A stretch of 64,000 nt of DNA from an uncultured Pseudomonadales bacterium (GCA_964455555.1 CAYVXV010000003.1:1475-65474), one strand, 5' to 3'; positions 13,326-52,266 are shown, counted from the stretch's first letter. Notes: generated from the letters alone by a model not told the origin. A program made the numbers and translations.

Positions 13326-13356
13326 GCATTGCCTCCAACATTAGATATTGTCATTT

Positions 13357-14991: not shown

Positions 14992-15013
14992 GGAGCGCTG
15001 CTATAATGCGCAT

Positions 15014-15382: not shown

Positions 15383-15394
15383 TTGGCGGAGTTT

Positions 15395-16468: not shown

Positions 16469-16474
16469 AACACC

Positions 16475-17440: not shown

Positions 17441-17452
17441 GGCAGGTCTTTC

Positions 17453-23462: not shown

Positions 23463-23545
23463 TCTAAGCTCATCTTACCGTAAGAAAATCGAAAAATAAA
23501 CGCCATGAAATTTTATCTCAAAGAATAAATTTTGTGAAAATAGTG

Positions 23546-23619
23546 TCGGGCTGACTGGACTCGAACCAGCGACCTCACGCACCCCATGCGCGCACTCTAG
23601 CCATCTGAGCTACAGCCCG
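23546..23619 (-). tRNA. tRNA-Pro (anticodon GGG)
   Basis: Reverse complement folds as a cloverleaf. Acceptor stem CGGGCTG/CAGCCCG, D-stem GCTC/GAGT, anticodon stem CGCGC/GCGTG with loop ATGGGGT (U33, anticodon GGG, G37). T-arm GCTGG-TTCGAGT-CCAGT, discriminator A. C1:G72 is the bacterial tRNAPro identity pair. No encoded CCA. Confidence 0.85.
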
Positions 23620-37485: not shown

Positions 37486-37808
37486 TGTCGCTAGAGGCCA
37501 TGTGGCGAGAATTTCTCGCCACTCCCATCCTGGTCTTCTTGGCTGGGATGCTGACGTGTTGGCTGCTCAATGCGCTAGTTTTGCCGGATAACCGGTCGAG
37601 CTGGCTGCATGCGCGGCGCAATGTTCCCACAGTGCTGCTGCCTCTCGGGGTTGTAGCCTTGGTCATTGCTGCCGCTGCCATTATCCTGGGCTTAGCCCAG
37701 GCAATGGTTTACATTCGCATTAACCCTGCGGTCTGGCTCTTGCTAGCAGCTGGGTTAATTATCCTGATCTTGTGGTTCGCCACAAGAAGGAGACGACCGC
37801 ATGCCTAA
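37486..37808 (+). CDS. Hypothetical small membrane protein (GC-rich island gene 1)
   Basis: GGGAGG RBS 6 nt upstream of the ATG. Two or three TM helices, RRRRPHA tail. Overlaps the start of the next gene by 8 nt (operon). GC about 60%. Confidence 0.5.
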
Positions 37809-39174
37809 GTACATCTTTGTTCTGGCAGCGCTCATCGCGCTGCTCGTCGCTGGGTGTGGCGAGCTCGTGACCGTAACTGGTCCCGAGACGTCCACCCCGG
37901 CACCGGCGGCCCCGTTAGCGCCGTCTCAGGAAGAGGCCGCTCCCGCGGTCGAAGAGCCCTCGCAAGAGAGCTCGCCGCCCCTCCGCGACAACCCCGCACC
38001 CGCGGGGAATGCGGAAGAAGCTGAAACCAAAGCAGAGGTTGTACCTGCAACCAATGCTGAGGATTCCTCGACCGCCACTCCTGTGGTGGTTGAGGCAGCT
38101 AGCGTCGCTCTCAACGACAACCCGGGCCACCGAGTAATTGTCCGTTGGAGCGACATTGATGCTGTGCTGGCGGAGACGGAGGAAGCCTCCGATGTCTTTG
38201 CGGCACTTGTCGAGGAATTCTGGCCATTTATGGTCTCGCTCAGCCCTGAGCAGATCGAAAATGGCTTAATTCTCGAGGGAGAGGGACTGCTCTTCATCGA
38301 ACTGTATTACCTCGGGCAAGAACTGCCCGAAGGTGTGCAGTGGCTTTGTGACTCCTGCCATGAATTTGGCTGGGGCCTCATCGCCATCGATGAGGGGGTC
38401 GAGTACCAGATCCCCTGGGATGAGGATGCGCCAATCGCAGGCGCGTGGTACCTCCCCATTGGCCTGGCGCTTGAACGCGTCCAGGACACATGGCTGGTAA
38501 CCACCTATGATCAGCGGGCCCTACCGCTGGTCAGCGAAGACGCCGTCCGCAGTGAACTCGGTACGCTGGCAAACACCGAGCAAGCCATCAGCCACATGAA
38601 CAACAGTTACTGGCAGTCCGCCCTCGGGTGGACTGCTAGTGATGCCGACAGCGGTTACACCGTAGTCGGCCCAGCGTTCGTGTGGACGGCCTGGCACGGA
38701 AGCCAGCCCAGCGGAGTTGTTTCCGCCTGCGCTAACTGCGTACGGCAGGACTGGGGCGTCTTCTACGTCCCAGACGGTGTCTCCTTCGAGACGCCGGACA
38801 ACAACAGCGGTGGCCGTTGGCTTCCACTGTGGGGGTCGAGCTGTCAGGGTGCTTCGCGCATCCAGCAGTTCATCTCCAGTGCCGAAACGCCGCAGGATGC
38901 CGTCGGTCGGATGCACGGGGATCTCTGGTCCCCGGTGGAAGACTATGACGGCTACAACCGCACCGAAAACTTCGTCTTTGGCGGGGTCCTAGACCTCGCT
39001 GCTGATGAAGTGGCCGTCATCTGGACCGACTGGAAGGGCGCTCCCCCCGAGGGAGCTATGCCCGCCACCAGTTCGTCCTACGACTTTGGCTACGGTGTCT
39101 TCACCGCAGCCGGGCCGTGGGAATACCGGTTCAGTGACGGAGGCGGTGGCGCCTTCGTCTTCAGCTGCGACTAA
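37801..39174 (+). CDS. Lipoprotein with Pro/Ala/Glu-rich linker and novel C-terminal repeat domain (GC-rich island gene 2)
   Basis: Lipobox LVAGC; about 80 aa PAE-rich low-complexity linker. The C-terminal about 95 aa (AETPQDAVG...TDWKG...GYGVF...GPWEY) is homologous to both repeats of the 40508 protein. Very high GC3. Confidence 0.65.
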   Translation: MPKYIFVLAALIALLVAGCGELVTVTGPETSTPAPAAPLAPSQEEAAPAVEEPSQESSPPLRDNPAPAGNAEEAETKAEVVPATNAEDSSTATPVVVEAASVALNDNPGHRVIVRWSDIDAVLAETEEASDVFAALVEEFWPFMVSLSPEQIENGLILEGEGLLFIELYYLGQELPEGVQWLCDSCHEFGWGLIAIDEGVEYQIPWDEDAPIAGAWYLPIGLALERVQDTWLVTTYDQRALPLVSEDAVRSELGTLANTEQAISHMNNSYWQSALGWTASDADSGYTVVGPAFVWTAWHGSQPSGVVSACANCVRQDWGVFYVPDGVSFETPDNNSGGRWLPLWGSSCQGASRIQQFISSAETPQDAVGRMHGDLWSPVEDYDGYNRTENFVFGGVLDLAADEVAVIWTDWKGAPPEGAMPATSSSYDFGYGVFTAAGPWEYRFSDGGGGAFVFSCD

Positions 39175-39344: not shown

Positions 39345-40277
39345 ATGAAGAAAAACAACAAACAACCACTGGTTTCGGTGCTTATCCCCGTTTATAACGG
39401 TGCTGAGTACCTGGATGAAGCCATTGCTTCAGTCCTCAATAGTACCTACAAAAACTTTGAGATTATTCTGGTGGATGACGGCAGCACAGATATTAGCCGA
39501 AAAAAATGCGCCGAATATGCCAAAAATCACGAAAACACCCGCTTCTATGCTTTCCGCAAAAATAAAGGCATGACCCGCTGCCTTAACTATGGCGTTAAGA
39601 AGGCTAAAGGCAAGTATATCGCCCGCATTAATCAGGACGACATCATGGTTAAAGACCGCCTGGAAAAACAAGTCGCCTTCCTAGAGAAAAATACCGGCTA
39701 TGTGGTGGTTGGAGGTGCTATTCAGCTCTTTACCGATAACAACCCCAAATTTGACCGCATTCAATTCCCCCTAACCGATAAGCTGATCCGTTCACAGTGG
39801 ATGATCTTCAGCCCCTACTCTGATCCGACCGTTATGTTCAGAAAAAGCGCTTGGGACAAAACTGAAGGCTATAGCCAATACTTCTGGCCTGCAGATGATG
39901 TCCATATGTGGTATCAGCTCGGCAACATCGGCAAAATGGCCAATTTACCAGGCATCCTGACCAAAGTGCGCTGGCATGATTCCTGCGGTTCAATTAAAAG
40001 CCACCGCCTGCAGATGCAAAAAACCTGGCGGGTTCATAATTGGGCAGCTGAAATGGTTCAAAAACCCAAGTTGTATGAGCGATTGTTCTGGATCGGCGAA
40101 CTGTTGGCCGGCTACCTGTTCACGCCTCAATTTAACTGGCTGGTCTACAGAACTATGCGCAAATTCCAAGCGGCTTTGTATTTGTCCCGCACCCAGTCAA
40201 AAAAGGTGCATTCTTCGCTTAGAACCCAGTTCTTACTCTTCAAAAAACAGTTTTCGCTGCTGCTTTTAGGTGCTTAA
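39345..40277 (+). CDS. Glycosyltransferase family 2
   Basis: VSVLIPVYNGAEYL...ILVDDGSTD GT-A N-terminal signature and an acidic motif further in. Composition close to the host average. Confidence 0.8.
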   Translation: MKKNNKQPLVSVLIPVYNGAEYLDEAIASVLNSTYKNFEIILVDDGSTDISRKKCAEYAKNHENTRFYAFRKNKGMTRCLNYGVKKAKGKYIARINQDDIMVKDRLEKQVAFLEKNTGYVVVGGAIQLFTDNNPKFDRIQFPLTDKLIRSQWMIFSPYSDPTVMFRKSAWDKTEGYSQYFWPADDVHMWYQLGNIGKMANLPGILTKVRWHDSCGSIKSHRLQMQKTWRVHNWAAEMVQKPKLYERLFWIGELLAGYLFTPQFNWLVYRTMRKFQAALYLSRTQSKKVHSSLRTQFLLFKKQFSLLLLGA

Positions 40278-40507
40278 TTTCCTCGAGTGTTATTGATATT
40301 TAACCCTATATATTTTATAATATAAGATAGTTTGTAGTGTAGTTTTGCAATTGCTGCAGATACTACACTGCATGCTCTTTAACAAACTAACTGAGTAATA
40401 GATCTTCCCACTGTTTACGGGTTTCCAGGACCTCTGTCCTTTGATGGAGTTTGTGGTAACCCGTAAACCCTTGCAGCCGTATGACTGCATAAGAAAAGTG
40501 AGGAAAA

Positions 40508-41266
40508 ATGAGCAAGCCAGTAAAAAAGATTTTGTTCCTGTTGGGGTTGATGATCTTGGCCTGGCTGATCCTCGTGAGAGGAGTCCTTGGCCAAGAAACT
40601 TTCCCATGGACGGACCAATTCGTCCAAAAAGTGGTCGCGGCGGAAACGCCGCAGGACGCGGTCGGGCTTGTCCTGAGCGCATTTAACGAACCTGGTTCGT
40701 CGGGGATTAATTTCTCCGGAGGCGTCACCGTCACGGTTGACGCCGAAACCTGGCTAGTTGTAGCCACGGACTGGGGAGCTGATATCCCCGCCGAGGCAGA
40801 GCCCCTCAACATCGTTGAGGACTCTGGCTACGGGGCCTGGCTCATCGCCGGGCCCTGGGAGGGGTTTATTCCCTCCGGAGTGGGTGTGAGCTTGGCAGAG
40901 GAAGTCGAAGTGGTCCCTACCACCTTTACTGTCTATCTGCCATTCATTTCCACTCCGCCAAGCCCCTGGATGAGCGCTCCGCTCGTCCAGCAGGCTTTGG
41001 CCGCTGCCAGCCCCGCTGACAGCGTGGCCTTTGTCCTGGGGGTCTTCAACGACCCCACCCGTTCCGGCGGCATTAACTTCGCCGCCAACCCCACTCTTTC
41101 CGTTGCCGCTGGCCAGGCTTACCTGGTTGCGGTGGACTGGGGTGACGCCGATCGCATCGGCGCCATTCCCGTCAACGTGACGGAGGAAGGGGCATATGGA
41201 ACCTGGGTCATCCCGGGTCCTTGGAACGGCGCAGTTCCGGGTGGAGTGGGTGTTCCACTCCACTAG
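40508..41266 (+). CDS. Secreted protein with two tandem copies of the novel about 95-aa domain (GC-rich island gene 3)
   Basis: Signal peptide MSKPVKKILFLLGLMILAWLILVRGVLG. Repeat 1 (AAETPQDAVGLVLSAFNEP...TDWGAD...GYGAWLIAGPWEG) and repeat 2 (AAASPADSVAFVLGVFNDP...VDWGDAD...AYGTWVIPGPWNG) align with each other and with the C-terminus of the 37801 protein. Confidence 0.65.
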   Translation: MSKPVKKILFLLGLMILAWLILVRGVLGQETFPWTDQFVQKVVAAETPQDAVGLVLSAFNEPGSSGINFSGGVTVTVDAETWLVVATDWGADIPAEAEPLNIVEDSGYGAWLIAGPWEGFIPSGVGVSLAEEVEVVPTTFTVYLPFISTPPSPWMSAPLVQQALAAASPADSVAFVLGVFNDPTRSGGINFAANPTLSVAAGQAYLVAVDWGDADRIGAIPVNVTEEGAYGTWVIPGPWNGAVPGGVGVPLH

Positions 41267-41284
41267 CTCAGTTAGTTTAAACTA

Positions 41285-41317
41285 CACCCCGGCCTAAAAA
41301 CCGGGGTGTTTTCATTT
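41285..41317 (+). terminator. Rho-independent terminator
   Basis: CACCCCGG-cctaaaaa-CCGGGGTG stem-loop followed by TTTTCATTT. Confidence 0.6.
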
Positions 41318-41393
41318 ATATCCTATATTATTGATTTTTACATACTATTGTGATATAATATCTTATCTTATAGTAACTATAGATAAGATTATT

Positions 41394-41627
41394 ATGAACA
41401 ACATGACACGCTTATTTAACACCGTTGTATTCGCCAGTATTGCCATTGTTGGCATTATGCTGGGAATTCAGCGAGTTGACACTTACCTTAGAAACCATGC
41501 TATCGATGGCTGTGCTCAAACCAGCCGGTATATTCACACCGAAAGCAATGGCAACACCTCAGATGTTTTTGAGGAACCAAGCCAAGGTGTTTATCAAAAA
41601 TGCTTAGACTTGAAAAATATTGACTAA
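41394..41627 (+). CDS. Hypothetical small membrane/secreted protein, 77 aa
   Basis: ATG at 41394 (MNNMTRL...), one TM/signal helix. No motif. Confidence 0.3.
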   Translation: MNNMTRLFNTVVFASIAIVGIMLGIQRVDTYLRNHAIDGCAQTSRYIHTESNGNTSDVFEEPSQGVYQKCLDLKNID

Positions 41628-41672
41628 ATAATCCAAAAAATTCTTAAAAGCTCCAGTCCTGCTGGAGCTTTT

Positions 41673-44600
41673 TTATATCCTTCCTAGGAGGCTGCGCCTT
41701 ACTTTTCTCATTCTATTTCTTTTATAAGGACTGCGGATAATCGGTTTTCTTGACTTTGAATAAACTATTGTAGCCAACAACGAAAGCCCTGAAATAAACC
41801 AGCCAGCTATGGCCAGCCTCTCCGGCAGATAGAAAGCATAAAAAACAACAGGCTCTTCGTCAGAGATTTCTTGTCCTGAAACAATCCAGCCATTGCTCCA
41901 ACCATTCACTTTGACGTGCTGACCGGCAACTAACCCCCGACCCCAGAGGACATTTAAAATATTATCAGTCTTATAAAGCCGCCACTGAGTGTCATAAGCC
42001 TGCCCGAAGGCTAAGAGCATCTCTCCATCACTTGGCTGATCCCGTTCTACGCTAAACTGCCACAAAGAAGGCAGAATTTTCCTGATGTGAGTTATCTGGC
42101 CTGAGGCAAAATTCAGCCTGCTTTCTCCATTTTCCAAATAGGTGTTCTGCCAGTCTGAAGGCAGGGCAATTACATTATTACTGGCAAATTCCACCAACGC
42201 TTGATTGGCAACGGTGTGATGAACCTCGAAGTATTCCTTGCTGCCGGTTTGAATCGGCCCCTGAGAAATCAGCATCCGCTGCCCTCTTATTAATTGGCGG
42301 TTTTCAAGTGCATCCTGCACCATTTGGTCATAAAATCCCTCTGTCCTAAACAGCAGTGGGTCAGCTTTTTGCAGGCTTTTAAAACCAGGTAGGTTGGGAT
42401 AACCGTCTAAATAAGAAACATACTCATTGACTAACTGATATGGCTCGCTGGCAATAAATTGAGGCTGCCCGCCGGTATAAACATGATAATCTGTGGTCCA
42501 GAGATAAAATGCCTGAGAAATATAGGGCAAGCTAACGAAAATGCTTTGATAGCAGTCGCTTAAGTATGAAAGCAACCCGCCGTGTATTGAGGACTTTATC
42601 ATTCTAATAGAGCTGTCTCTGTGGTCGCCAACAGCCAAGCTGCAAACACCCCTTTCTCTCGGTTCCAAAGCATCCAAATTGGGGTTCATATAAAATGATG
42701 AAGGTGAAAACACTGGAGCAAACCTTATTGAATTGGTTTGATCAGCCAGGGTGTCAAAGGTTTCAGCAGTTTCAGAATAATATGCAGATATAGATGCCTC
42801 ATATTTTGGCTGGTATTCATGAACCATCAACTTAGTGACATCCAACTCATGCGTGCTGTTTTCTATTGTCGGTAGTATGAGGATGGTCTGTAGAACATTT
42901 CCTGAAAAGGTTTTTTCTGAAGTTACCCTGACATTCTGCAGCGGCCTATTGCCATTGAGCGAAAGCCTGCTGTTCAAACAATCTCCATCAACATCGTTCT
43001 TTATGCAAATTCCAAAAGATTGGTAATTTGGCAAACTGTTTACCACCCTCTCGATGGCTTTCTGAGTCTGAGAAGGAGTAAAGGATTGATCCAGATCAGC
43101 TTTGCCAAAACTATTCTGAGTTGCACTGACTTCGACTTCTACATACCTAGCAGCATCCGGAATTACAATTGTTTTAGCAATACAGGCTGATCCTTTTTCG
43201 GTTGTAAGGCTCAAGCGGTTTGGATTGACAGTCAGTTGAGGGTTATAACCCTCTGTAGCATCCAAAAGGCAGTTGGAGTCATCGGTAAGCCTAAAGGCAG
43301 GAGGAGTAATGGATATTAGGTCACTGCTCTTCTCAAGCAAGGCCACATTTGTAATACCCGGATTTACCAGAACCGAGCCCAGGAATTGGGGGTTGCTTAG
43401 AAATCCTGCCGGCAGCGGCAAAATTGTCTCTCCTATTTGGAGCCTGTAGGGTGACAATTGCTTATTCCCCAACATGTGCCAATTAGCCAACACCTGGTTG
43501 TAGGTAATATTTTCAGCCTCCAGATCGTCAAACTCAGCCGCGGAAATCTCCAGAGAAAATAAAAGCACCTCGTCCGACAAGGATTGGCCTATTACCGGTT
43601 TTGCCAAAGTTCCAAAAATATCCAAGCCGTCTACTCTCGGCCGGGAGTAAATGCTTACAGCAAAAGGGCTGTTTGCGCGCCGTTCTTGGCCGTAGGATAT
43701 CTTGTCAAACTCAGTTCCGGAATTTTCAAAAACTGCAGTTATTTCCTCATCTCCAAACGAGTACTTCGTTAAAGGATTGTGAAACGGATAAGTCCGGTAG
43801 GGATAAGCAGTTGTCTGAATAACAGTTCCTTGGCTGGTAAATAGTGGTTTAATAAAAGCGTTTGCAAATGTCGGATCCAAATTAATTGCGGAGTCAACAA
43901 CCTCAACTGCGTCAACGGTATTTTTTACTTCATAGAGCACCAAATTTGGATTGGCCGCAACTTGCTCATCAATCTTGGAGATATTTACTCCATATACCCG
44001 TGCATGCCTGGACAGGTTAATGGTTTCCGTTTGTATTATCTCTAAGTCTTCTTGATCAACCAGGGTATCCAGCATCTGCTTAACCTCAACCTGCTGAATA
44101 TATTCCCAAGTTCTTACATCCTTGGCAGCGATATTGCTGTCCACCGACTCATCAAAAAGTACATATTTGACACCAGCTCTCCTCAGTAGCTCGCCAAGCC
44201 ATTTTGCCCTGGAATTAATCTCAGCCTCATCGACTGCATAAGCATTCTGAAAAACGCTGTTTAGGGCAAAGTCAAAAAAGTCGTTGTCCTGGTTCGCAGG
44301 AGAAAAGGTTTTATCTAATAGCGGTTTATTAAGAATGAAATTAAAGAAGGATGAGCCGTAATATCCCCACTTGTATGACCGCCAATAACTAAACTGACCA
44401 ACAGGCAAGTGCAATACCCTTGCGTAGCTGTGGTCATTGTTGATAGTTGTGGCTACTGAATAGTATTCTTGAGGAAAACTCACTCTCAAGAGTGAAAACA
44501 GCATTGAACCTTTAAGCGGGAAATAAGCCATCCATCCCAACCAAACTATCAGCACAATTAAGCTAACAGACTTGGCTAAAAGAATTGCGCCCTTGGGAGC

Positions 44601-45911
44601 GGCTTGTAGATATCTATCCCTGAACCATTTAACGGACTGCAATAGAACATAAACTCCAGCTCCAACCATAACTGCAAAGGCTATCAGCAGCAGTGGATTT
44701 AGTTTGGTAGTACCAAAACGAAGCACTAATTTTAATGGAGGTATTTTCTCACCCAACAGATCATAGATATAGCCGAAGGGTGGATACTCTTTTCTAAGCA
44801 AAAACATGCTACCGGCAGCCAAAACAACCGGCCAGAGCGCCTCAAACTTTCTTTGCAACAATCTCCTAATCAGATAAAGAAAACCTAAGCCAACAAAGGG
44901 TAAGGGCAAAAAGAAATACCAAGCAACTTGTTTGCCTATATGAGTATATTCCAGGGACTCGTGAACTTTCACCGGCTCCCCTGTTGAAATTGAAGTAAAT
45001 GGCAGGCCAGAGGCAAACTCAGAAGAAAAAGTCAGCAGTTTATCCCAGCTAAAGCGCTCTGCGAACTGATTGAATAAATACTCATTCACCAGAGCAAAAG
45101 TAGAAGACTGCGTAATGGTTCCGGCTTTATGGTTGGTGTAATTTACAAACGGCAGCAACCAAAATAGATTAAGCATAAAAAATAGCAAAAAAATTGAGGC
45201 AAAGCGTTTGAGCCTGTGCGGATAACTAAACAACAATGTGAAAAAAAGTATAACCAGAGTAAAAAAGACTGTGGCGGTTAAATAAGACGGAGCACCTAAA
45301 AAGACAACAAGAGAAAATAAAATCAAATGCCGCCGTTCCCAATGGCGGTTGTCAAGTAGCTTAAGAAATAACAACAAAATTACAGGAAAAAAGGCAAATC
45401 TAACCAAATACATAACAATCGGTAGATAAAATACATCGACTGTGTATAGGCTAAAAGTATAGAAAAGTGCACCTGCTAGGGAGGCTGCCTGCAAGAGCTG
45501 GTTATTTTGCCTTGACGATGCCGACAGCTGCTCTAAAACCTCCTTAACCAGCAGAAAAGCAGCCGCGCCCCCGGTTACATATAGTGCCAAATAATAAACC
45601 TGGTCTACTAATCGAATCGGCAGTAGCAGATCCAAAGGCAATAAGATTATCTGCCGGAAAATATCTACAACTTCTGAATCACTAGGGACACCAAAGCCGC
45701 GGTAATCCCTCCAGGTGGCAAAGAGTGTCCGGAAAAAGTTGTCTTTCAAACTTAATGAAACACTGAAATTGTCCCAGCCCAAGATCGCTGTATCAATTTT
45801 AAGACTAATGATGCTAATGACAGACAGGAGAAACAAAAGAGTTATCAGTCCCCACCAATCAGCAACTGTTTTTTTAACCATTTGCTTAAACTGAGTAGAA
45901 TTTAATTGCAT
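41673..45911 (-). CDS. Giant polytopic membrane protein (1412 aa), possible GT-C/AftD-like glycosyltransferase
   Basis: About 12 TM helices in the first 470 aa, a roughly 900-aa hydrophilic (probably extracytoplasmic) region, and a C-terminal TM helix. Overall architecture is like the AftD/YfhO class of GT-C enzymes. The ORF track start is GTG; ATG at 45911 (MQLNSTQF) is used here. Confidence 0.6.
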   Translation of the reverse strand: MQLNSTQFKQMVKKTVADWWGLITLLFLLSVISIISLKIDTAILGWDNFSVSLSLKDNFFRTLFATWRDYRGFGVPSDSEVVDIFRQIILLPLDLLLPIRLVDQVYYLALYVTGGAAAFLLVKEVLEQLSASSRQNNQLLQAASLAGALFYTFSLYTVDVFYLPIVMYLVRFAFFPVILLLFLKLLDNRHWERRHLILFSLVVFLGAPSYLTATVFFTLVILFFTLLFSYPHRLKRFASIFLLFFMLNLFWLLPFVNYTNHKAGTITQSSTFALVNEYLFNQFAERFSWDKLLTFSSEFASGLPFTSISTGEPVKVHESLEYTHIGKQVAWYFFLPLPFVGLGFLYLIRRLLQRKFEALWPVVLAAGSMFLLRKEYPPFGYIYDLLGEKIPPLKLVLRFGTTKLNPLLLIAFAVMVGAGVYVLLQSVKWFRDRYLQAAPKGAILLAKSVSLIVLIVWLGWMAYFPLKGSMLFSLLRVSFPQEYYSVATTINNDHSYARVLHLPVGQFSYWRSYKWGYYGSSFFNFILNKPLLDKTFSPANQDNDFFDFALNSVFQNAYAVDEAEINSRAKWLGELLRRAGVKYVLFDESVDSNIAAKDVRTWEYIQQVEVKQMLDTLVDQEDLEIIQTETINLSRHARVYGVNISKIDEQVAANPNLVLYEVKNTVDAVEVVDSAINLDPTFANAFIKPLFTSQGTVIQTTAYPYRTYPFHNPLTKYSFGDEEITAVFENSGTEFDKISYGQERRANSPFAVSIYSRPRVDGLDIFGTLAKPVIGQSLSDEVLLFSLEISAAEFDDLEAENITYNQVLANWHMLGNKQLSPYRLQIGETILPLPAGFLSNPQFLGSVLVNPGITNVALLEKSSDLISITPPAFRLTDDSNCLLDATEGYNPQLTVNPNRLSLTTEKGSACIAKTIVIPDAARYVEVEVSATQNSFGKADLDQSFTPSQTQKAIERVVNSLPNYQSFGICIKNDVDGDCLNSRLSLNGNRPLQNVRVTSEKTFSGNVLQTILILPTIENSTHELDVTKLMVHEYQPKYEASISAYYSETAETFDTLADQTNSIRFAPVFSPSSFYMNPNLDALEPRERGVCSLAVGDHRDSSIRMIKSSIHGGLLSYLSDCYQSIFVSLPYISQAFYLWTTDYHVYTGGQPQFIASEPYQLVNEYVSYLDGYPNLPGFKSLQKADPLLFRTEGFYDQMVQDALENRQLIRGQRMLISQGPIQTGSKEYFEVHHTVANQALVEFASNNVIALPSDWQNTYLENGESRLNFASGQITHIRKILPSLWQFSVERDQPSDGEMLLAFGQAYDTQWRLYKTDNILNVLWGRGLVAGQHVKVNGWSNGWIVSGQEISDEEPVVFYAFYLPERLAIAGWFISGLSLLATIVYSKSRKPIIRSPYKRNRMRKVRRSLLGRI

Positions 45912-46002: not shown

Positions 46003-47139
46003 ATGGCTCTAATCCTAGCGTTAGTGGTTTTCTTTTATGCAGCGGTTCAGCCTGCGGCAGCTTCCGTTCTCATTACTGAAGTCCATCCCAACCCAATTAG
46101 CGGACCAGAGTGGGTTGAGCTCTACAACAGTTCCTCGCAAAGTGCCTCATTAGCCGGCTGGCAGCTTAAAGACCAACTGTCTTCACCTTCTCTGGTCTTC
46201 ACATTTGCCAACGAAATCATGGCTCCCCTTGAAATTCTTGTTATTCAGCTTGCCGGAACCAAACTCAATAACACAGCTGATGGAGTGACCTTACTAGACT
46301 CTTCCGGCTCAATTCAGGACGAAATGCAGTATGAAAATACGGAATCAGGAAAAAGTTGGTCAAGAAAAAATTTAACTAGCAGCGTTTTTATTCTGACTGA
46401 TCCGAATCCAGGAATTTTTGAGCAAATATTGACAGATCCAACTCCTACGCCACCACTCAACCAGCCAACTCCCAGCCCGAGCACTGGGCTTGCCATCATT
46501 CAAGAATTTTCTCCCTGCCCCCCTACCGGCCAACAAGAGTGGGTGAAAATCTACAATCCAGGCAGCAGCAATTTAGATCTGACAGGTTGGAAAATCAAAG
46601 ACGCCCAGAATAACAGCCGCGCTCTAGCTGGCAGCTTGCCTCCTCAATCAAACAATACCTTTTCCTGGCCGGCCAGCATTTTAAATAATGCTGGGGATGA
46701 GCTGTTTCTTTACAATGCATCCGAGGCCTTAATCGACTCGGCATATTACGAGGACTGCACTGGTGGCCAGGTTTTTGTCAAAAATGGCGATGAATGGCGG
46801 CCGATGGGAGAAGCTCCCAACTCAAATCCGGCTAATCCTGATATGTTAACACTAAAAAATTCACTACTGACAACTCAGGCTGCCGATTCGCCGGAACAAA
46901 ACAAAGATCAACGCTTTCTGCCAAAAAACCTAAGCCCGTCTGATTTTAAGCTTTCTACCGGCGCCCAAGACTCAAAAACCCATAATGGCCGCGCCATCTT
47001 CCTTACCAGCGCTCCCAACAGCCTTACTTCAGAAGTTCCTGCAAGTGTTATACTAGGTGGGTTATTTGTGAGCTGCGCGGGAGCAATATTTATTTATGAA
47101 TCCGACAAGAAGTACCAGCAGGCAAAAGTTTTGGACTAG
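46003..47139 (+). CDS. Lamin-tail-domain (LTD) protein with two LTD repeats and C-terminal TM anchor
   Basis: Two copies of the LTD signature (ITEVHPNPISGPEWVELYN...LAGWQLKD and IIQEFSPCPPTGQQEWVKIYN...LTGWKIKD). N-terminal signal; C-terminal hydrophobic helix. Confidence 0.7.
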   Translation: MALILALVVFFYAAVQPAAASVLITEVHPNPISGPEWVELYNSSSQSASLAGWQLKDQLSSPSLVFTFANEIMAPLEILVIQLAGTKLNNTADGVTLLDSSGSIQDEMQYENTESGKSWSRKNLTSSVFILTDPNPGIFEQILTDPTPTPPLNQPTPSPSTGLAIIQEFSPCPPTGQQEWVKIYNPGSSNLDLTGWKIKDAQNNSRALAGSLPPQSNNTFSWPASILNNAGDELFLYNASEALIDSAYYEDCTGGQVFVKNGDEWRPMGEAPNSNPANPDMLTLKNSLLTTQAADSPEQNKDQRFLPKNLSPSDFKLSTGAQDSKTHNGRAIFLTSAPNSLTSEVPASVILGGLFVSCAGAIFIYESDKKYQQAKVLD

Positions 47140-47485
47140 TTATCTACTGCCAGTTCTTTGGGCAGCCTTTATTTTCATCCTCTCAAACCAAACCAGCCTT
47201 CCCGGTTTTGAACTTTCAGCTGCTGACTTCGTTTTGAAAAAATCCGCTCATATGTTTGTGTACGGGGTACTCTTCATTTTAGTTCACCGTGCTTTAAACA
47301 CTGCCGGTTTCGGCAGAAAAGGTATGCCTGTTTGGGCCATGGCTTTTGCCATTACAATAATTTATGCCGTTAGCGATGAATTGCACCAAACTTTTGTTGC
47401 CGGCAGATACGGTTCTGCCAAGGATGTTGGGTATGATGCTCTAGGTGCATATGTAGCTATATTACTTAAGTATAAGTACATTTAG
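47096..47485 (+). CDS. VanZ-like family membrane protein
   Basis: KKSAHMFVYGVL...DELHQTFVAGRYGSAKDV matches the conserved VanZ-like core. Overlaps the end of the LTD gene by 44 nt. Confidence 0.55.
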   Translation: MNPTRSTSRQKFWTSYLLPVLWAAFIFILSNQTSLPGFELSAADFVLKKSAHMFVYGVLFILVHRALNTAGFGRKGMPVWAMAFAITIIYAVSDELHQTFVAGRYGSAKDVGYDALGAYVAILLKYKYI

Positions 47486-47609
47486 ATGAGTGTGATGCTC
47501 GTCACAGTTTAAAAAGGGCTTTACATCGCTGATAAACTGGTTATAATTCAAGTTCAGTCCATTAAGACCTACTTAATAGGCAGATACAAAGAAAAATTAG
47601 AAAGTTCGC

Positions 47610-47885
47610 ATGACAAAGTCTCAGCTCATTGCTGTAGTCGCAAAAAAAGCTCACCTGACTAAAAGAGCCTCTTCAGATGCTGTTGAAGCAATGTTTGATG
47701 AATTAATCCGCTCTCTGAAGAAGGGTGAGAAAGTAGTAATTTCTGGCTTCGGCACCTTCTATGTGAGCCAAGTGGATGATAAAGAAGTAGTCCCCTTCGG
47801 AGATGAAACAAAAAGACAAACCATAAAAGGACACCGTGTAGTAAACTTCCGGGTCGGCAAACCGCTTAAAAAAGCTGTCTGGTAA
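47610..47885 (+). CDS. hup: DNA-binding protein HU
   Basis: 90-aa HU/IHF fold: MTKSQLIAVVA..., GFGTFYVSQ, arm RQTIKGHRVVNFRVGKPLK. Confidence 0.9.
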   Translation: MTKSQLIAVVAKKAHLTKRASSDAVEAMFDELIRSLKKGEKVVISGFGTFYVSQVDDKEVVPFGDETKRQTIKGHRVVNFRVGKPLKKAVW

Positions 47886-47906
47886 AATCAGATTATTTTG
47901 AAGCTA

Positions 47907-47936
47907 AACCCCCCGAACAAACGGGGGGTTTTTGTT
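47907..47936 (+). terminator. Rho-independent terminator after hup
   Basis: AACCCCCCG-aacaaa-CGGGGGGTT stem-loop followed by TTTTGTTT. Confidence 0.6.
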
Positions 47937-47993
47937 TAACCCTATTTTTTAACTCAAGCAATGCTTAAATAATTAGACTACAATAAATAACTC

Positions 47994-48794
47994 ATGTTAA
48001 CTAAATTTTATACGCTATTCCGGCAAAACATCATGATTGCTCTGCAATTCAGAGCAGAAACCTTGCTGTGGCTGGTTATTGATATAGTGCCTTTCATTAC
48101 GATGATCTTCATCTGGAAAGCGATATATGCCGGCAGCACCGAGTTAAGCGGTTACTCTTTAAACCAGGTCATGCAATACTACTTTGTTATTGCCCTAATA
48201 GACCGGCTAACCTATGTACATTTTGAACCATACCGAACGGAGCAGATTAGGGAAGGCAAAATTGATTTTTACCTTGTCAGGCCAATTTCTTACAACAAGG
48301 AAATGCTTATCTCACACCTGAGCAGCAAAATTTTTTCAATAGTGCTGTTCGCCCCGGTAATATTTTTCTTCTTGATCGCCTTAAACGCACTAATCCCTGA
48401 TTTCACTTTCGCATTTCAAGCATCCTCACTGCCTGCATTCGCTTTCCTATTTGCAGCATCTTTCGCTATTCAGTTTATGATCGGCCTGCTAATCGTTTAT
48501 GCAACCTTTTGGCTTGAAGGCTCTCAAGGTTTAGAGCACTTTAAATGGATTGGGGTTGCTATGCTCAGCGGTACTCTGATGCCAATTGCTTTTCTGCCGG
48601 ATTGGCTATCCGGCCTCATCTTAGCATTGCCCCTAAAGTATCTTTATGCTGTACCGATATCATTAATTGATGGCAGTTATATCATGCAGTTATCTGATTA
48701 TCTTTACGCATCCGGCTTTATGGCAGCAATGTGGCTTTTGTGCAATTATGTATGGAAGTCGGCACAGAAGCAGTATGCTTCTGCCGGCGGATAA
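47994..48794 (+). CDS. ABC-2 type transporter permease (pair 1, subunit A)
   Basis: 6-TM ABC-2-like permease; paralogous to the 50676 gene (FRAETLLW versus YRTNVIMW region). Confidence 0.65.
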   Translation: MLTKFYTLFRQNIMIALQFRAETLLWLVIDIVPFITMIFIWKAIYAGSTELSGYSLNQVMQYYFVIALIDRLTYVHFEPYRTEQIREGKIDFYLVRPISYNKEMLISHLSSKIFSIVLFAPVIFFFLIALNALIPDFTFAFQASSLPAFAFLFAASFAIQFMIGLLIVYATFWLEGSQGLEHFKWIGVAMLSGTLMPIAFLPDWLSGLILALPLKYLYAVPISLIDGSYIMQLSDYLYASGFMAAMWLLCNYVWKSAQKQYASAGG

Positions 48795-48800
48795 TAGTGT

Positions 48801-49601
48801 ATGAAACAAACACTTAGAAAATATTGGCGGCTTTTTTGGTATTTCAGAAAACTTCAACTGATGAGGATGATGGAGTATCGCGGCGATTTCTTTTTCTGGT
48901 CCTTCGTCTCACTAATGTGGACATTTTTTAATATTTTCTTCTTTAGATTATTAATTTCTGTCAATGACAATATTGCCGGTTGGAACGAGTATGAGCTCTA
49001 TGCATTTATGGGAATTTACACCATGGTGGATGCTGTCTTCTGGTCATTCTTCTACTCGAATATGTCGGAGTACCGGACTACTATTTATGATGGCAAGCTT
49101 TCCAATCTGCTTCTCAAGCCAATCAGCCCCATCTTTATCATCTTGGTTCAACGCAATAGCTACAACAACATGCCTCGATTTTTTATTGGCCTAGGCTTAC
49201 TGCTTTGGTCGTTGAACAGCCTTGGAATATCCCCTACTATTGAGCAAATTTTTACTTTTTCTGTTGTTTTCATCACTGCTTTGATATTTATCTATTTCGG
49301 CTGGTTTATGATAACTACTCTAGCCTTCTGGGTAGAGCGGTTAAATAATATTATTGAAATCATGCCGGGACTCAAACAAATCTACCAGTTTCCTGCCAGT
49401 GTATACACAGGAATTTTTTCATTTGTGTTTACCGTCCTTTTTCCAATACTAATGGCTACAACATTACCTGCGGAAACACTTTTAAGGCAAACCAATTGGA
49501 CTATGACTGCCTATTTTATGGTTTTTACAGCAGGATTAATTGCAGCCAGCCTAAGGTTTTTTAACTTCAGCGTGAAAAAATACTCAGGTATCGGCAATTA
49601 G
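48801..49601 (+). CDS. ABC-2 type transporter permease (pair 1, subunit B)
   Basis: 6-TM permease; paralogous to the 51448 gene. Confidence 0.65.
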   Translation: MKQTLRKYWRLFWYFRKLQLMRMMEYRGDFFFWSFVSLMWTFFNIFFFRLLISVNDNIAGWNEYELYAFMGIYTMVDAVFWSFFYSNMSEYRTTIYDGKLSNLLLKPISPIFIILVQRNSYNNMPRFFIGLGLLLWSLNSLGISPTIEQIFTFSVVFITALIFIYFGWFMITTLAFWVERLNNIIEIMPGLKQIYQFPASVYTGIFSFVFTVLFPILMATTLPAETLLRQTNWTMTAYFMVFTAGLIAASLRFFNFSVKKYSGIGN

Positions 49602-49637
49602 CAATTTATTTCGAAGAAAGTGAGTTACAATAATTTC

Positions 49638-50663
49638 ATGCCAAAAAGCAAACAGTTAAACCCTTCAGCTGTCATCCAAGTCAAAAACCTTAGGAAGCAT
49701 TTTAAAGTCTATCATAAGGAGCCGGGGCTATCAGGGTCAATAAAATCACTTTGGAGCCGAAAATACGAGACTGTAAAGGCCGTTGATGATATCAGTTTTG
49801 AGATCAAGCAAGGGGAAATGGTTGGATTTATCGGTCAAAACGGCGCCGGAAAAACCACAACACTAAAAGTGCTCTCCGGCTTGCTATACCCCACCGATGG
49901 CCAAGTTCGGGTCCTGGGGTACAATCCTTGGGATCGAAAACCGGAGTTCCAGAAGCAGTTTGCTTTGGTGATGGGCCAAAAAAATCAACTTTGGTGGGAT
50001 TTGCCTGCCATGGAAACATTCTTGCTGAATAAGGCTATCTATGAGATTCCGGAAAAACAGTTTGACGAGACCCTCAACCGCCTTGTAGACTTACTGGATA
50101 TCCGGAAGATTATGCATGTCCAGGTCCGCAAGCTTTCCCTCGGACAACGCATGAAAGCTGAACTTGTGGCTGCACTGCTGCATAACCCCAAAGTGCTTTT
50201 CCTTGACGAACCCACCATCGGACTGGACGTGGTTATGCAAAAAACTCTCCGTGATTTCATTAAGAAATACAACGAAGAGTTTGGGGCCACAATTATTCTG
50301 ACAAGCCACTACATGGATGATGTTAAAGAGCTGTGCGAACGCGCCATTATTATCGACAACGGCCATAAGATTTTTGACGGCAAACTGCAAAATATAATCG
50401 ATAAATACGCTAGGAATAAAATCTTATCGCTCGTTTTCAGCCAAGAAATCAGCGAGAAAGACCTCACTCCCTACGGAGAAATTAAAGAGTTAGACCAAGA
50501 CGGATCAGCTTATACAGCCACCCTATTGGTACCCAGAAAATCCGCCACCTCACAAGCCGGCAAAATCTTGAACAAACTGCCCGTCCAAGACCTGAATATC
50601 GAAGAACCGCCTATAGAAGCAATTATCCGCGAGGTTTTCGGCGATACCAACAAATCCCGCTAG
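49638..50663 (+). CDS. ABC transporter ATP-binding protein (COG4586-like, with C-terminal extension)
   Basis: Walker A GQNGAGKTT, signature LSLGQRMK, Walker B LFLDEPTIGLD, followed by an extra about 100 aa C-terminal domain. The ORF track start is GTG at 49620; ATG at 49638 is used here. Confidence 0.85.
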   Translation: MPKSKQLNPSAVIQVKNLRKHFKVYHKEPGLSGSIKSLWSRKYETVKAVDDISFEIKQGEMVGFIGQNGAGKTTTLKVLSGLLYPTDGQVRVLGYNPWDRKPEFQKQFALVMGQKNQLWWDLPAMETFLLNKAIYEIPEKQFDETLNRLVDLLDIRKIMHVQVRKLSLGQRMKAELVAALLHNPKVLFLDEPTIGLDVVMQKTLRDFIKKYNEEFGATIILTSHYMDDVKELCERAIIIDNGHKIFDGKLQNIIDKYARNKILSLVFSQEISEKDLTPYGEIKELDQDGSAYTATLLVPRKSATSQAGKILNKLPVQDLNIEEPPIEAIIREVFGDTNKSR

Positions 50664-50675
50664 CCCTACTGACCA

Positions 50676-51467
50676 ATGCAAAAATATCTCACACTGCTCA
50701 AGCTATCCTGGGAAACCGGACTGGTGTACCGGACCAATGTCATTATGTGGAGATTCAGGCAATTTTTATTGACCCTGATGTCACTAACCATCTGGACTGT
50801 GATATTTGGCTCTCAGGAGGAGGTCTTTGCCTATTCCAGCTCCCAAATGATTACCTACATTTTTATCGCGGCTATCACCCAAAGTGTTATTTTGGCAACA
50901 GCCCTCAATGGGTTGGCTAACACCATTTACTCCGGTGCACTTAGCAATATCCTGGTGAAACCAGTTAGTTTGTTCTTATATTTTGCAGCGGAAGATTTGG
51001 CGGACAAACTAAAAAATTTTGGCTTTATAGTTATCGAAACAATTATCTTGTTTTTAATTTTCAAGCCACCGGTTGTCTTGCCGGAACCACCGGTGGTTTT
51101 GCTGTTTATAATCTGGATTCTAGCCGGCGCTGTGCTTAACTTCCTCATCACTCTTTTATTCGGTGCCATGGGTTTTTGGAGCCCCGATGTGTGGGGGCCG
51201 CGCTTCTTGTTTTTCATGATTGTGAGTTTTACTGCAGGAACTCTTTTTCCGCTCGATATTTTGCCGGCAACGTTTACCAGGATTTTATTCTTTACGCCAT
51301 TTCCATACTTTGCCTACATGCAATCCCAGTTGTTTCTGGGCCGAATAGCCGGAAGTGATATCTTATTGCACTCAATAGCATTATTTTTCTGGATTTTAGC
51401 CTTTGGATTTATAGTAAAAATGGTTTGGAGCCGCGGAATTAAAAATTATGCCGCTCAGGGACAGTAA
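50676..51467 (+). CDS. ABC-2 type transporter permease (pair 2, subunit A)
   Basis: Paralog of the 47994 gene. Confidence 0.65.
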   Translation: MQKYLTLLKLSWETGLVYRTNVIMWRFRQFLLTLMSLTIWTVIFGSQEEVFAYSSSQMITYIFIAAITQSVILATALNGLANTIYSGALSNILVKPVSLFLYFAAEDLADKLKNFGFIVIETIILFLIFKPPVVLPEPPVVLLFIIWILAGAVLNFLITLLFGAMGFWSPDVWGPRFLFFMIVSFTAGTLFPLDILPATFTRILFFTPFPYFAYMQSQLFLGRIAGSDILLHSIALFFWILAFGFIVKMVWSRGIKNYAAQGQ

Positions 51468-52266
51468 TATGTTTAACAGACTGATTTCTTACTGGAAGGT
51501 GTGGCACCTAATTGCCGGTAATGCTCTGCAGGAGACATTTGTAAACAGGTGGACAAACTCTCTATTCTTCATCGGTAAAGTATTCCGGTTGGCCATGACC
51601 TTGTTTTTGCTGCTTTTAATCAAAGAGCGGGTTCAAACTTTTGCCGGCTACAGTACAGATGAGATTATCATCTTCTTTCTTACCTATCAGTTTATTGACG
51701 TACTGGTACAAATACTCTACCGGGGAGTTTATATGTTTACCCATCAGATGAGAACCGGTGAGTTTGATTTTCTTTTGACTAAACCTATTAACGCCCTTTT
51801 TCAATCTCTGATGGGCAAACCGGATTTTACAGATGTGCTTTTTATTATTCCTGCCACTCTAGTAAGCCTCTGGATTGCACTGCAGTTGGATATCACCGTC
51901 ACCGGAGCCTCAATTTTTTGGTATTTAATACTGCTGGGCAACGCCTTCCTAATCGGCACCGGACTTCATATCTTAATTCTATGCCTTGGGATAGTCACAA
52001 CAAATATTGATAGTGCTATCTGGCTCTACCGTGACCTTATGCAAATGGGTCGCTTTCCTGTAAGCATATACTTAGAGCCCATTAAACTGGCTTTATTCTT
52101 TTTAGTGCCTGTAGGAATGATGATAACAATTCCCAGTGAAATTCTGCTGAACCGCCCACCAACTTATAGTGCTGTCATGGCGACTATCTTTGGAATCAGT
52201 TTTTTCTTAGCCAGCTTGCACATCTGGAAGTTGAGCCTGAAGCAATACAGCAGTGCCAGCAGTTGA
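51448..52266 (+). CDS. ABC-2 type transporter permease (pair 2, subunit B)
   Basis: Paralog of the 48801 gene. Overlaps the upstream gene by 20 nt; an alternative ATG lies at 51469. Confidence 0.65.
   Translation: MPLRDSNMFNRLISYWKVWHLIAGNALQETFVNRWTNSLFFIGKVFRLAMTLFLLLLIKERVQTFAGYSTDEIIIFFLTYQFIDVLVQILYRGVYMFTHQMRTGEFDFLLTKPINALFQSLMGKPDFTDVLFIIPATLVSLWIALQLDITVTGASIFWYLILLGNAFLIGTGLHILILCLGIVTTNIDSAIWLYRDLMQMGRFPVSIYLEPIKLALFFLVPVGMMITIPSEILLNRPPTYSAVMATIFGISFFLASLHIWKLSLKQYSSASS

Follow-up and report, generated by a model that had tools for sequence, protein, structure and literature searches.

Introduction

AftD, the alpha-(1->3)-arabinofuranosyltransferase of Mycobacteriales/Actinobacteria (PF11847, GT-C_AftD, formerly DUF3367; structures 6W98, 6WBX and 6WBY), is a GT-C membrane glycosyltransferase. 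Enzymes of this type are essential and complete the arabinan of the cell wall in mycobacteria. We know of no arabinan, the AftD substrate, in Microgenomates-group organisms. Homologues of AftD have been reported from Actinobacteria only, and the C-terminal bundle of the enzyme consists of five TM helices (TM12-16), with an acyl carrier protein bound cytoplasmically (bioRxiv 10.1101/2019.12.22.885152). The ectodomain of AftD is large, comprising a soluble GT-C domain, three CBMs and a structural beta-sandwich. Oligosaccharyltransferases (OSTs) such as AglB, STT3 and PglB (PF02516) are also of the GT-C fold. A further comparison is offered by three-component systems, namely, GtrA/GtrB/GtrC, CsbB-YfhO and the pentofuranose system of UbiA, MATE flippase and GT136 GT-C (PMC11127046). 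In these systems the GT2 or UbiA protein is a membrane-bound polyprenyl-phosphate-sugar synthase, and some of the GT-C enzymes bear a C-terminal CBM.

Here we describe a large membrane protein encoded in a window of 64,000 nucleotides, the whole stretch of DNA that was analysed. It is likely an active GT-C-class glycosyltransferase (GT-C_A, AftD/OST-like) of an uncultured, ultra-small bacterium of the Microgenomates group (CPR), working in a conserved gene module.

Gene integrity and domain organization

A polytopic membrane giant of 1412 aa had been proposed for this position with no strand given, and the ORF is confirmed on the minus strand (Table 1). It starts with ATG, an alternative GTG at 45920 adding three codons, and ends with a stop codon at 41673-41675. 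No ORF of at least 100 aa overlaps it on the opposite strand. Together with the end-to-end alignment of ~57 full-length homologues (1270-1420 aa), an identical protein in NCBI (P0001, from a contig of 118 kb) shows that the gene is real and intact. Members of the family carry no annotation beyond 'hypothetical protein'.

Table 1. Coordinates of the large GT-C gene, its domains and other genes of the window.
Feature	Coordinates	Strand	Basis or remark
Gene for the 1412-aa AftD-like GT-C membrane glycosyltransferase (likely)	41673..45911	minus	Uninterrupted ORF, translation, homologues
Polytopic GT-C membrane domain, residues 1-470, 11 or 13 TM helices	44502..45911	minus	
G45-W46-D47-N48 motif, first extracytoplasmic loop	45768..45779	minus	Conservation; directly after TM1
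Mixed alpha/beta soluble part of the GT-C super-domain, residues ~471-700	43812..44501	minus	AF2 secondary structure, alignment to AftD, conservation
About four beta-sandwich domains (CBM-like jelly-rolls), residues ~716-1361	41829..43766	minus	Six conserved Cys
Single C-terminal TM helix, residues 1366-1384	41760..41816	minus	Hydropathy, charge count
Basic cytoplasmic tail, residues 1385-1412	41676-41759	minus	Charge count
Partner gene, 310-aa soluble GT2, GT-A fold, Leloir type	39345..40277	plus	Pfam Glycos_transf_2, 5e-35; no TM helix
Third neighbour, 457-aa predicted lipoprotein, lipobox LVAGC	37801..39174	plus	Sequence; directly upstream of GT2
Insert, 252-aa secreted paralogue of the lipoprotein C-terminal repeat	40508..41266	plus	Signal peptide; window-specific, between GT2 and the large GT-C gene
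UbiA/DPPR-synthase-like gene	16475-17440		NCBIfam model; 25 kb from the large GT-C gene

In the N-terminal part of the protein, a Kyte-Doolittle scan separates ~10 hydrophobic segments within residues 21-459, and the AF2 model has ~11-13 long helices within residues 20-466. Both loop 1 and the ectodomain have to be extracytoplasmic, which requires an odd number of N-terminal TM helices (11 or 13), so that the ~12 counted in the first-pass annotation were a fair reading. The ~900-aa hydrophilic domain noted previously spans residues 460-1365 (906 aa, Kyte-Doolittle) and is indeed followed by one final TM helix. Behind this helix, the 28-residue tail contains 12 K/R and no D/E, and the topology, judged by hydropathy and charge count, agrees with the positive-inside rule. 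Four ectodomain cysteines (C881, C910, C969 and C978) are invariant in the family and two more (C1090 and C1120) are at least 90% conserved, consistent with an extracytoplasmic location.

Relationship to AftD

Searches with the single sequence gave no match in Pfam, PF11847 included, even at E<=1, and nothing useful among PDB sequences (best hit RFC at E 2.2). A 15-bit NCBIfam match to a 23S rRNA methyltransferase model was spurious. A 54-sequence family HMM retrieved only chance matches among PDB sequences (Cse4, E 0.58), and AftD was not retrieved. Thus, the homology to AftD is detected only by profile-profile and fold comparison. When the family profile was aligned with 22 AftD-family proteins (hhalign), the probability was 93.3% (E 2.6e-7, 433 columns). 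The family profile also reaches, at E 3e-5, a protein with a PF11847 score of 147.8 bits. A motif preceding the C-terminal TM helix, GQ..D.QW...VNGWSNGW...P-E-R-L..GW, aligns to the AftD segment before TM12 (hhalign, 84%). Only this C-terminal motif was recovered when the family alignment (A4) was compared with AftD-family protein P0081, which begins at position 228 of the PF11847 model; the N-terminal relationship emerged only with full-length AftD proteins.

Fold comparisons point in the same direction. All top Foldseek matches of residues 1-600 are GT-C enzymes, AftD ranking first or second, and the polytopic domain shows the helical arrangement of the GT-C_A class. The ectodomain shares the AftD organization of a soluble GT-C part and beta-sandwich modules, and is closest to AftD and then to CBM15/CBM4/CBM22-type modules; identity to AftD in the structural alignments is 12-14%. 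The proposals of an AftD-like GT-C enzyme and of carbohydrate-binding modules in the ectodomain are thereby supported. Neither of the two outcomes that were to speak against them was observed, the GT-C fold being present and matches to MMPL/RND transporters, or confident ones to any other unrelated family, being absent. A transporter of the MMPL, RND or MFS type was rejected, as the Foldseek matches to MFS proteins have probabilities <=0.13 and TM ~0.1. The suggested likeness to YfhO was not borne out, with no PF09586 match for the query and seven homologues at E<=1. We regard fold, domain order and homology to AftD at the profile level as demonstrated.

The protein is nevertheless not a threshold-level member of the AftD family. 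With a PF11847 gathering score of 26 bits, its close homologues reach 21.5-24.9 bits and only distant paralogues pass (26.1-28.5 bits). A single C-terminal TM helix followed by the 28-residue tail replaces the five TM helices of AftD, so that the cytoplasmic region for binding the acyl carrier protein is missing. An invariant serine also occupies the position of AftD D474. Sequence and structural model together mark it as a distant GT-C variant of the AftD-like kind, and it does not represent a new class of enzyme.

Unlike AftD of Actinobacteria, the family is found in genomes of the Microgenomates group of CPR. The same lineages contain a shorter paralogue group (~900-1290 aa, e.g. P0058-P0076), which is far more abundant. 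Homology extends over the N-terminal 560 residues (22-27% identity, E 1e-16 to 1e-38), and the two groups have the invariant W67, G74, P176, W251, R398, K403, P480, P503 and D587 in common. The C-terminal anchor is also present, and a GT2 gene is found nearby in four loci (L043-L046), whereas the ectodomain is shorter and of another type and some members reach the PF11847 threshold. With a profile composed largely of these paralogues, 8733 clusters (50% identity) were collected at E<=1e-3, the top 150 of which belong to the paralogue group.

Conserved residues and the AftD active site

G45, W46 and D47 do not vary among 54 full-length homologues. Over 71 sequences, the distant paralogue group included, conservation of D47 is at least 90%. 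Located 8 residues past TM1 (residues 21-39), D47 occupies the position of the conserved acidic residue of the first extracytoplasmic loop and is a candidate catalytic or metal-binding aspartate. R398 and K403 are also invariant in the family and E277 is at least 90% conserved. The soluble domain contains a conserved block, R498-V-L-H501-L-P503 ... W515-G516-x-x-G519-S520, which aligns to the 'RVLEIPG...WG' block of AftD (hhalign).

The essential residues of M. abscessus AftD are K39, D41, E251, K361 and D474 (bioRxiv 10.1101/2019.12.22.885152). We mapped them transitively, from the family to the AftD set by hhalign and then from P0228 to 6w98 by phmmer, the 6w98 chain index being the native AftD numbering plus 3. 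By this mapping, E251 and K361, both shown to be essential (bioRxiv 10.1101/2019.12.22.885152), correspond to E277 and K403, respectively, and D474 to S520. D41 falls on S50 and K39 on ~N48, both approximately, as these positions are just beyond the aligned block. Three of the five essential residues thus appear not to be kept (D474 and, by approximate mapping, D41 and K39). The Acidimicrobiia AftD set, too, departs from D41, with Tyr in its place, and the invariant D47 lies at most one residue from AftD D37.

The AftD-like fold and overall build make it very probable that the protein glycosylates a polymer of the cell surface, on the external side of the membrane. As the fold, the topology and R398/K403 suggest, the N-terminal 11 or 13 TM helices would take up a polyprenyl-phosphate-linked sugar donor on the external side of the membrane, with the basic R398 and K403 contacting the donor phosphate. 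D47 (loop 1) and E277 (long external loop) may serve catalysis or metal binding. The acceptor of the sugar would be a large extracytoplasmic glycan, bound by the ~four CBM-like beta-sandwich domains, with the C-terminal TM helix tying the ectodomain back to the membrane.

A conserved gene neighborhood

The most constant neighbor is the GT2 gene, left unmentioned in the first-pass annotation. Its orthologue (43-73% identity) directly adjoins the large GT-C gene in all 35 informative loci, which span Roizman-, Woese-, Gottesman- and Shapirobacteria and WWE3. The pairing occurs in two different gene orders. In the window the two genes are convergent, as in most loci, and the members of such pairs are thus not co-transcribed. 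The closest solved relatives of the GT2 protein are the GlcA-transferase domain of chondroitin synthase, GalT1 and heparosan synthase, and its best full-length matches are EpsE and chondroitin synthase. ArnC, DPMS and GtrB match with only 24-37 bits, restricted to the N-terminal 100 residues. These weak matches and the lack of a TM helix led us to reject a GtrB/ArnC/DPM1-type polyprenyl-phosphate-sugar synthase as the leading reading. From its sequence, GT2 looks like a glycan-elongating Leloir enzyme, which leaves no donor-making gene linked to the large GT-C gene.

The slot upstream of GT2 is occupied in ~25 of 32 loci by an anchored or secreted protein with a Pro/Ala/Ser/Thr-rich (PAST) linker. 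In the window this is the predicted lipoprotein, with a Pro/Ala/Glu/Ser-rich linker and Cys-containing repeats; a homologue adjoins GT2 in locus L004. The inserted secreted paralogue is 34% identical to it over 97 aa. GT2 and the large GT-C gene are 1395 bp apart here, versus 0-420 bp or an overlap in the other loci. Three minus-strand ORFs in this interval (40290-40682, 40387-40812 and 40754-41263) have no Pfam match and odd composition and were treated as non-coding shadows of 40508-41266. Rfam and tRNA scans of the window yielded only one tRNA-Pro (23545-23619), and the absence of rRNA from the Rfam scan indicates that the GC-rich stretch at 38-41 kb is protein-coding. No GtrA-like flippase was found next to the large GT-C gene.

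Three products make up this conserved module, namely, a Pro/Ala/Ser/Thr-rich protein that is anchored or secreted, a Leloir-type GT2 of the cytoplasm and the large GT-C protein. Membership in it suggests that the GT-C protein probably performs a late, extracytoplasmic step on a surface glycopolymer or glycoconjugate which GT2 helps to build inside the cell. A conserved Leloir-type GT2 neighbor distinguishes the locus from AftD. The locus resembles the three-component systems in pairing an extracytoplasmic GT-C with a GT2, but here the GT2 is soluble and close to chondroitin and heparosan synthases and EpsE. In addition, the GT2/GT-C pair includes no flippase gene, and the GT-C protein is two to three times larger than theirs and without a YfhO match.

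Alternative functions

The large protein might instead be a true arabinofuranosyl- or pentofuranosyltransferase using a polyprenyl-phospho-pentofuranose made by the UbiA gene, an idea close to that of the first-pass annotation. The DPPR-synthase-like identity of this gene stands, as it clears the NCBIfam decaprenyl-phosphate phosphoribosyltransferase cut-off (217.4 versus 207 bits). AftD is the nearest characterised relative of the large protein by both sequence profile and Foldseek, and systems of a UbiA-type synthase with a pentofuranose GT-C are widespread (PMC11127046). The functional link, however, finds no support in synteny. Only one of ~40 related loci (L005) has a UbiA homologue near the large GT-C gene, 6 kb away; it is missing from the 6-kb flanks of all others, and the conserved partner is GT2 instead. 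The UbiA gene, 25 kb off, belongs to a same-strand run of its own that has one or two GT-C genes. This run encodes a WecA-like GT4, a PMT-type GT-C of 453 aa and a 9-TM protein of 547 aa, in which the UbiA product has its obvious users. No DprE1/DprE2-type epimerase or PAP2-type phosphatase gene was found among the window ORFs scanned, the D474 position is changed to serine, and the fold does not separate pentose from hexose donors. We hold this function to be improbable.

An OST-like protein glycosyltransferase, acting for instance on the Pro/Ala/Ser/Thr-rich linkers of the GT2-adjacent anchored proteins, has a correspondingly small likelihood. The likeness to OSTs is one of fold only, and a close structural relation to OSTs is known for AftD as well (bioRxiv 10.1101/2019.12.22.885152). 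Neither the protein nor the homologues tested have a Pfam match to STT3 (PF02516), and sequence profiles tie the family to AftD. The WWDYG motif is missing, its counterpart Y509-W510-x-S-Y-x-W515-G516-Y-x-G519-S520 being devoid of a conserved Asp. There is also no OST-type C-terminal domain; the ectodomain is instead much larger, with CBM-like sandwiches and an extra C-terminal TM helix, and its matches to AftD and glycan-binding CBMs argue for a glycan acceptor. The neighboring anchored or secreted proteins, moreover, fall into at least two unrelated BLAST families. A related reading, which we give only a slim chance, is that the three recurrent genes form an undescribed CPR-specific surface-glycosylation module, in which a new protein-directed GT-C with a lectin-like ectodomain and an altered active site (Ser for AftD D474) glycosylates, or attaches a glycan to, the neighboring secreted protein.

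PIG-U keeps the GT-C fold without transferase activity, but a similarly non-catalytic scaffold or lectin-like surface anchor is very unlikely here, as the charged D47, E277, R398 and K403 are conserved at canonical GT-C positions in 54-71 sequences of only 22-35% identity and the gene is strictly paired with one for a glycosyltransferase, which speaks for a part in making glycans. The AftD-like glycosyltransferase acting on a surface glycan is the reading that we prefer.

Implications for CPR bacteria

A distant relative of AftD in structure and sequence is now placed in Microgenomates-group CPR bacteria, with most members of the family scoring under the Pfam threshold. As a natural AftD variant without the acyl-carrier-protein-binding TM bundle and with an altered active-site position, it should be of use in defining the core catalytic features. 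To our knowledge, CPR envelope glycans are essentially uncharacterised, and the secreted protein, GT2 and GT-C provide a three-gene handle for their study. The constant pairing with GT2 implies that ~4 kb of a reduced genome is given over to a dedicated step of surface-glycan assembly outside the cytoplasm. If the module were protein-directed, it could build a surface layer for envelope integrity or host contact in episymbionts.

Architecture and distribution of the giant protein family

Upstream of the ATG of the giant gene by three codons, at position 45920, there is an alternative GTG start, and the opposite strand contains no ORF of at least 100 aa inside the gene. A Kyte-Doolittle scan of the protein detected ~10 separate hydrophobic segments in residues 21–459, a hydrophilic stretch of 906 residues (460–1365) and a last hydrophobic helix (1366–1384); the 28-residue tail behind it contains 12 Lys/Arg and no acidic residue. 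Both loop 1 and the ectodomain have to lie outside the membrane, which requires an odd number of N-terminal TM helices (11 or 13), and the helices of the AF2 model agree with this. This is the architecture that the first-pass annotation had described, leaving only the strand unstated.

An identical protein is on record at NCBI, encoded on a 118-kb contig. One relative shares 65% identity with it and ~55 more full-length relatives share 26–40%; the named homologues are all labelled 'hypothetical protein'. The scan of one genome per GTDB species yielded 44 giant-gene loci. Informative organism names for these loci nearly all belong to the Microgenomates group (CPR), namely Roizman-, Woese-, Gottesman-, Shapiro- and Chisholmbacteria, WWE3 and 'Patescibacteria group', the exceptions being one Vitreimonas and one Limisphaerales. 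Labels such as 'uncultured Gammaproteobacteria' appear to stem from automated MAG submissions, and we regard these labels and both exceptions as unreliable. The giant subfamily (1300–1420 aa, ~57 clusters at 90% identity, 44 species-level genomes) is much smaller than the superfamily, which is dominated by shorter paralogues. An exhaustive HMM search with an N-terminal-domain profile, built mainly from these paralogues, collected 8733 clusters (50% identity) at E ≤ 1e-3, of which 2444 remained at the stricter E ≤ 1e-30; the best 150 of the 8733 clusters are all 874–1296-aa proteins of the shorter group. The latter (P0058–P0076, ~900–1290 aa) has in common with the giant protein a GT-C domain at the N terminus and an anchor at the C terminus, and some of its members reach the threshold of the AftD family PF11847 (GT-C_AftD, formerly DUF3367). 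In loci L043–L046, a GT2 gene 29–39% identical to that of the window is found within ~2.5 kb of a shorter paralogue.

Relationship to AftD

Single-sequence searches with the giant protein gave no matches, and the family HMM (54 sequences) did not retrieve AftD from the PDB sequences. Three close homologues match PF11847 at 21.5–24.9 bits, under the cut-off of 26 bits, and three paralogues of the shorter group score 26.1–28.5 bits. The family profile search also reached, at E 3e-5, a protein with 147.8 bits on PF11847, which bears CBM_AftD and F5/8-type-C domains as well. In profile-profile comparison with 22 aligned AftD-family proteins from Acidimicrobiia, the giant family matched with 93.3% probability (E 2.6e-7, 433 columns). 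The alignment spans query residues 51–538 and AftD residues 48–491 and so takes in the entire membrane domain as well as the first part of the soluble GT-C domain. In a separate comparison, the last β-strands and the start of the C-terminal TM helix align with AftD at 84% probability, with the motifs '...GQ..D.QW...VNGWSNGW...PERL..GW' in the query family and '...GQS.DDGW...VNGFANGW...PQRF.WFGF' in AftD.

The AF2 model of residues 1–600, built with the family alignment, is confident (pLDDT 92.6, pTM 0.93). In a Foldseek search against the PDB, the three AftD entries came on top (6w98, E 8e-7, TMq 0.55), followed by AglB, AftA, STT3, DPY19 and ArnT; lower matches were MFS-type noise (probability ≤0.13). 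The model of residues 468–1412 is also confident (pLDDT 89.3) and contains an α/β domain (residues ~481–699), about four β-sandwich domains (~716–1361) and, at the C-terminal end, a TM helix with a short cytoplasmic helix. Among solved structures, AftD comes nearest to either half. The GT-C membrane domain and carbohydrate-binding-like modules proposed from sequence alone are thus borne out by both models, and we consider it very likely that the giant protein is a GT-C-fold protein homologous to AftD.

Mycobacterial AftD has 11 N-terminal and five C-terminal TM helices, carries three CBMs and a structural sandwich in its periplasmic region, and binds an acyl carrier protein; its homologues were found by PSI-BLAST in Actinobacteria only, and K39, D41, E251, K361 and D474 are each essential (bioRxiv 10.1101/2019.12.22.885152). 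By contrast, the giant protein has a single C-terminal TM helix and the short tail, and lacks the C-terminal bundle associated in AftD with acyl-carrier-protein binding. Residues of M. abscessus AftD were mapped through two alignments, giant family to AftD family and then P0228 to 6w98, in which the chain index equals native numbering + 3. E251 corresponds to E277, at least 90% conserved in the giant family and adjoining the invariant N276; K361 and R357 correspond to the invariant K403 and R398, respectively. D474 corresponds to S520, an invariant serine inside the W515-G516-x-x-G519-S520 block. Beyond the aligned block, the equivalents are approximate: about S50 for D41 and about N48 for K39. 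Eight residues past TM1, the giant family has an invariant G45-W46-D47 motif, within one residue of the conserved D37 of AftD. The alignments suggest that the typical GT-C catalytic framework is kept (an Asp in loop 1, an acidic side chain in the long external loop, basic side chains for the phosphate) and that one AftD-essential position is systematically different. Six ectodomain cysteines are retained (C881, C910, C969 and C978 invariant; C1090 and C1120 at least 90%), consistent with disulfides outside the cell.

A GT2 gene accompanies the giant gene

A tblastn comparison covered the flanks of every related locus. A GT2 orthologue directly adjoins the giant gene in all 35 distinct loci with a long enough contig, and is better conserved (43–73% identity) than the giant protein itself (25–35%). 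The two genes are convergent in 31 loci, with the GT2 gene either overlapping the 3' end of the giant gene or lying at most 420 bp away, and in four loci (L027, L028, L034 and L049) GT2 is immediately upstream on the same strand. The other flank of the giant gene varies, so the pairing has outlasted rearrangement, which argues for functional coupling.

The window GT2 lacks TM helices. Over its full length it best matches Leloir enzymes that elongate glycans, including EpsE (132 bits) and the GlcA-transferase domain of chondroitin synthase (101.6 bits, residues 6–235); further matches are GalT1, heparosan synthase and SpsA. The polyprenyl-phosphate-sugar synthases ArnC, DPMS, GtrB and PpgS score only 19–37 bits, over the N-terminal ~100 residues, which disfavours GT2 as the maker of the GT-C donor. 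Given these matches, it probably works in the cytoplasm, in the glycan pathway that the giant protein also serves.

The gene just upstream of GT2 on the same strand has recurrent features in ~25 of 32 loci: the product is 150–400 aa long, with an N-terminal anchor or signal, a Pro/Ala/Ser/Thr-rich stretch and several Cys. These proteins split into at least two BLAST families. In four loci the genes for the secreted protein, GT2 and the giant protein follow each other in this order on one strand. Within the module, the secreted protein may act as acceptor or as accessory protein. The 1395-bp gap between GT2 and the giant gene (40278–41672) is unique to the window; ORF 40508–41266 in this gap encodes a secreted paralogue of the C-terminal repeat of the window lipoprotein (34% identity over 97 aa). 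GC content is 0.48–0.55 at 38–41 kb of the window versus 0.41–0.44 elsewhere.

On the divergent side, 91 bp from the giant gene, lies the gene for a lamin-tail-domain (LTD) protein with an N-terminal signal and a C-terminal TM helix, followed by VanZ, HU and ABC-2 transporter genes. This order is retained in 36–40%-identical relatives (the P0003 contig and L001) and lost in more distant loci. Small genes with 23S_rRNA_IVP/bAvd domains are found near the module in two loci (L005, 4836–5204 and 14713–15093; L004, 15502–15924), in L004 directly upstream of the LTD protein gene. The bAvd domain occurs in accessory proteins of diversity-generating retroelements. Elsewhere, the window carries recA, RNase Y, metG, RF-2, ftsEX, rpoA, secY and one tRNA-Pro, in keeping with a small bacterial genome.

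Features of the window and counterparts in related loci
Feature	Position	Strand	Remarks
Large ORF	4664–6463	+	599 aa, no TM helix, no Pfam match
Large ORF	11820–13325	+	501 aa, 4 TM helices, no Pfam match
Envelope gene run	13348–18814	+	same-strand; includes the UbiA-family gene
Run member			547 aa, 9 TM, weak PMT match
Run member			122 aa, 2 TM
WecA-like GT4 (run)	15383–16468	+	
UbiA-family gene (run)	16475–17440	+	217.4 bits; NCBIfam decaprenyl-phosphate phosphoribosyltransferase cut-off 207
PMT-type GT-C (run)	17453–18814	+	453 aa
Pre-GT2 gene	37801–39174	+	predicted lipoprotein, lipobox LVAGC
GT2	39345–40277		310 aa, convergent with giant gene
Secreted paralogue in gap	40508–41266	+	252 aa, two internal repeats
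Single-TM ORF in gap	41331–41627		98 aa
Giant gene	41673–45911	−	1412 aa, uninterrupted, ATG start
Divergent flank	46003–52266	+	LTD protein, VanZ, HU, four ABC-2 permease genes, one ATPase
Pre-GT2 counterparts	L001 13207–14013; L003 13314–14111; L004 13017–13994; L019 6602–7456; L030 10923–11603		

The UbiA-family gene and the nature of the donor

The first-pass annotation had linked the giant protein to a DPPR-synthase-like gene 25 kb upstream. The family assignment of this UbiA gene holds, since it passes the cut-off; none of the analyses made supports the functional tie. Pentofuranose systems consisting of a synthase and a GT-C were described by Kelly et al. (PMC11127046), and the UbiA run resembles such polyprenyl-phospho-pentofuranose systems; no epimerase or MATE flippase was seen. 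The neighbours of the UbiA gene in this run are the evident consumers of its product. Because different enzymes of a genome can draw on one lipid-linked donor, the giant protein could still be a pentofuranose transferase served by this gene; however, UbiA has candidate partners in its own run, a homologue is found within 6–8 kb of the giant gene in a single related locus (L005), and no DprE1/DprE2-like or PAP2-type gene was found among the window ORFs scanned. We consider this reading unlikely.

Proposed role of the giant protein

For the giant protein, the analyses show a GT-C fold, domains ordered as in AftD, conserved charged residues at canonical positions, the topology and a strict pairing with GT2. 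It is probably an active extracytoplasmic glycosyltransferase. At the outer membrane face, it would accept a sugar linked to polyprenyl phosphate and transfer it to a large glycan, or perhaps to a glycoprotein, bound by its CBM-like domains. A role as an OST-like protein-glycosylation enzyme is improbable, and a non-catalytic role is very hard to credit. As a transferase, the giant protein would complete or decorate a surface polymer, with GT2 helping to build the lipid-linked precursor in the cytoplasm.

Full-text literature searches turned up no account of AftD-like enzymes in CPR bacteria. The giant protein represents no new enzyme class. Among AftD-like GT-C proteins it is a distant one, set apart by its simpler C-terminal anchor, by a change at one active-site position, by the lineage in which it occurs and by the distinctive gene module conserved around it.
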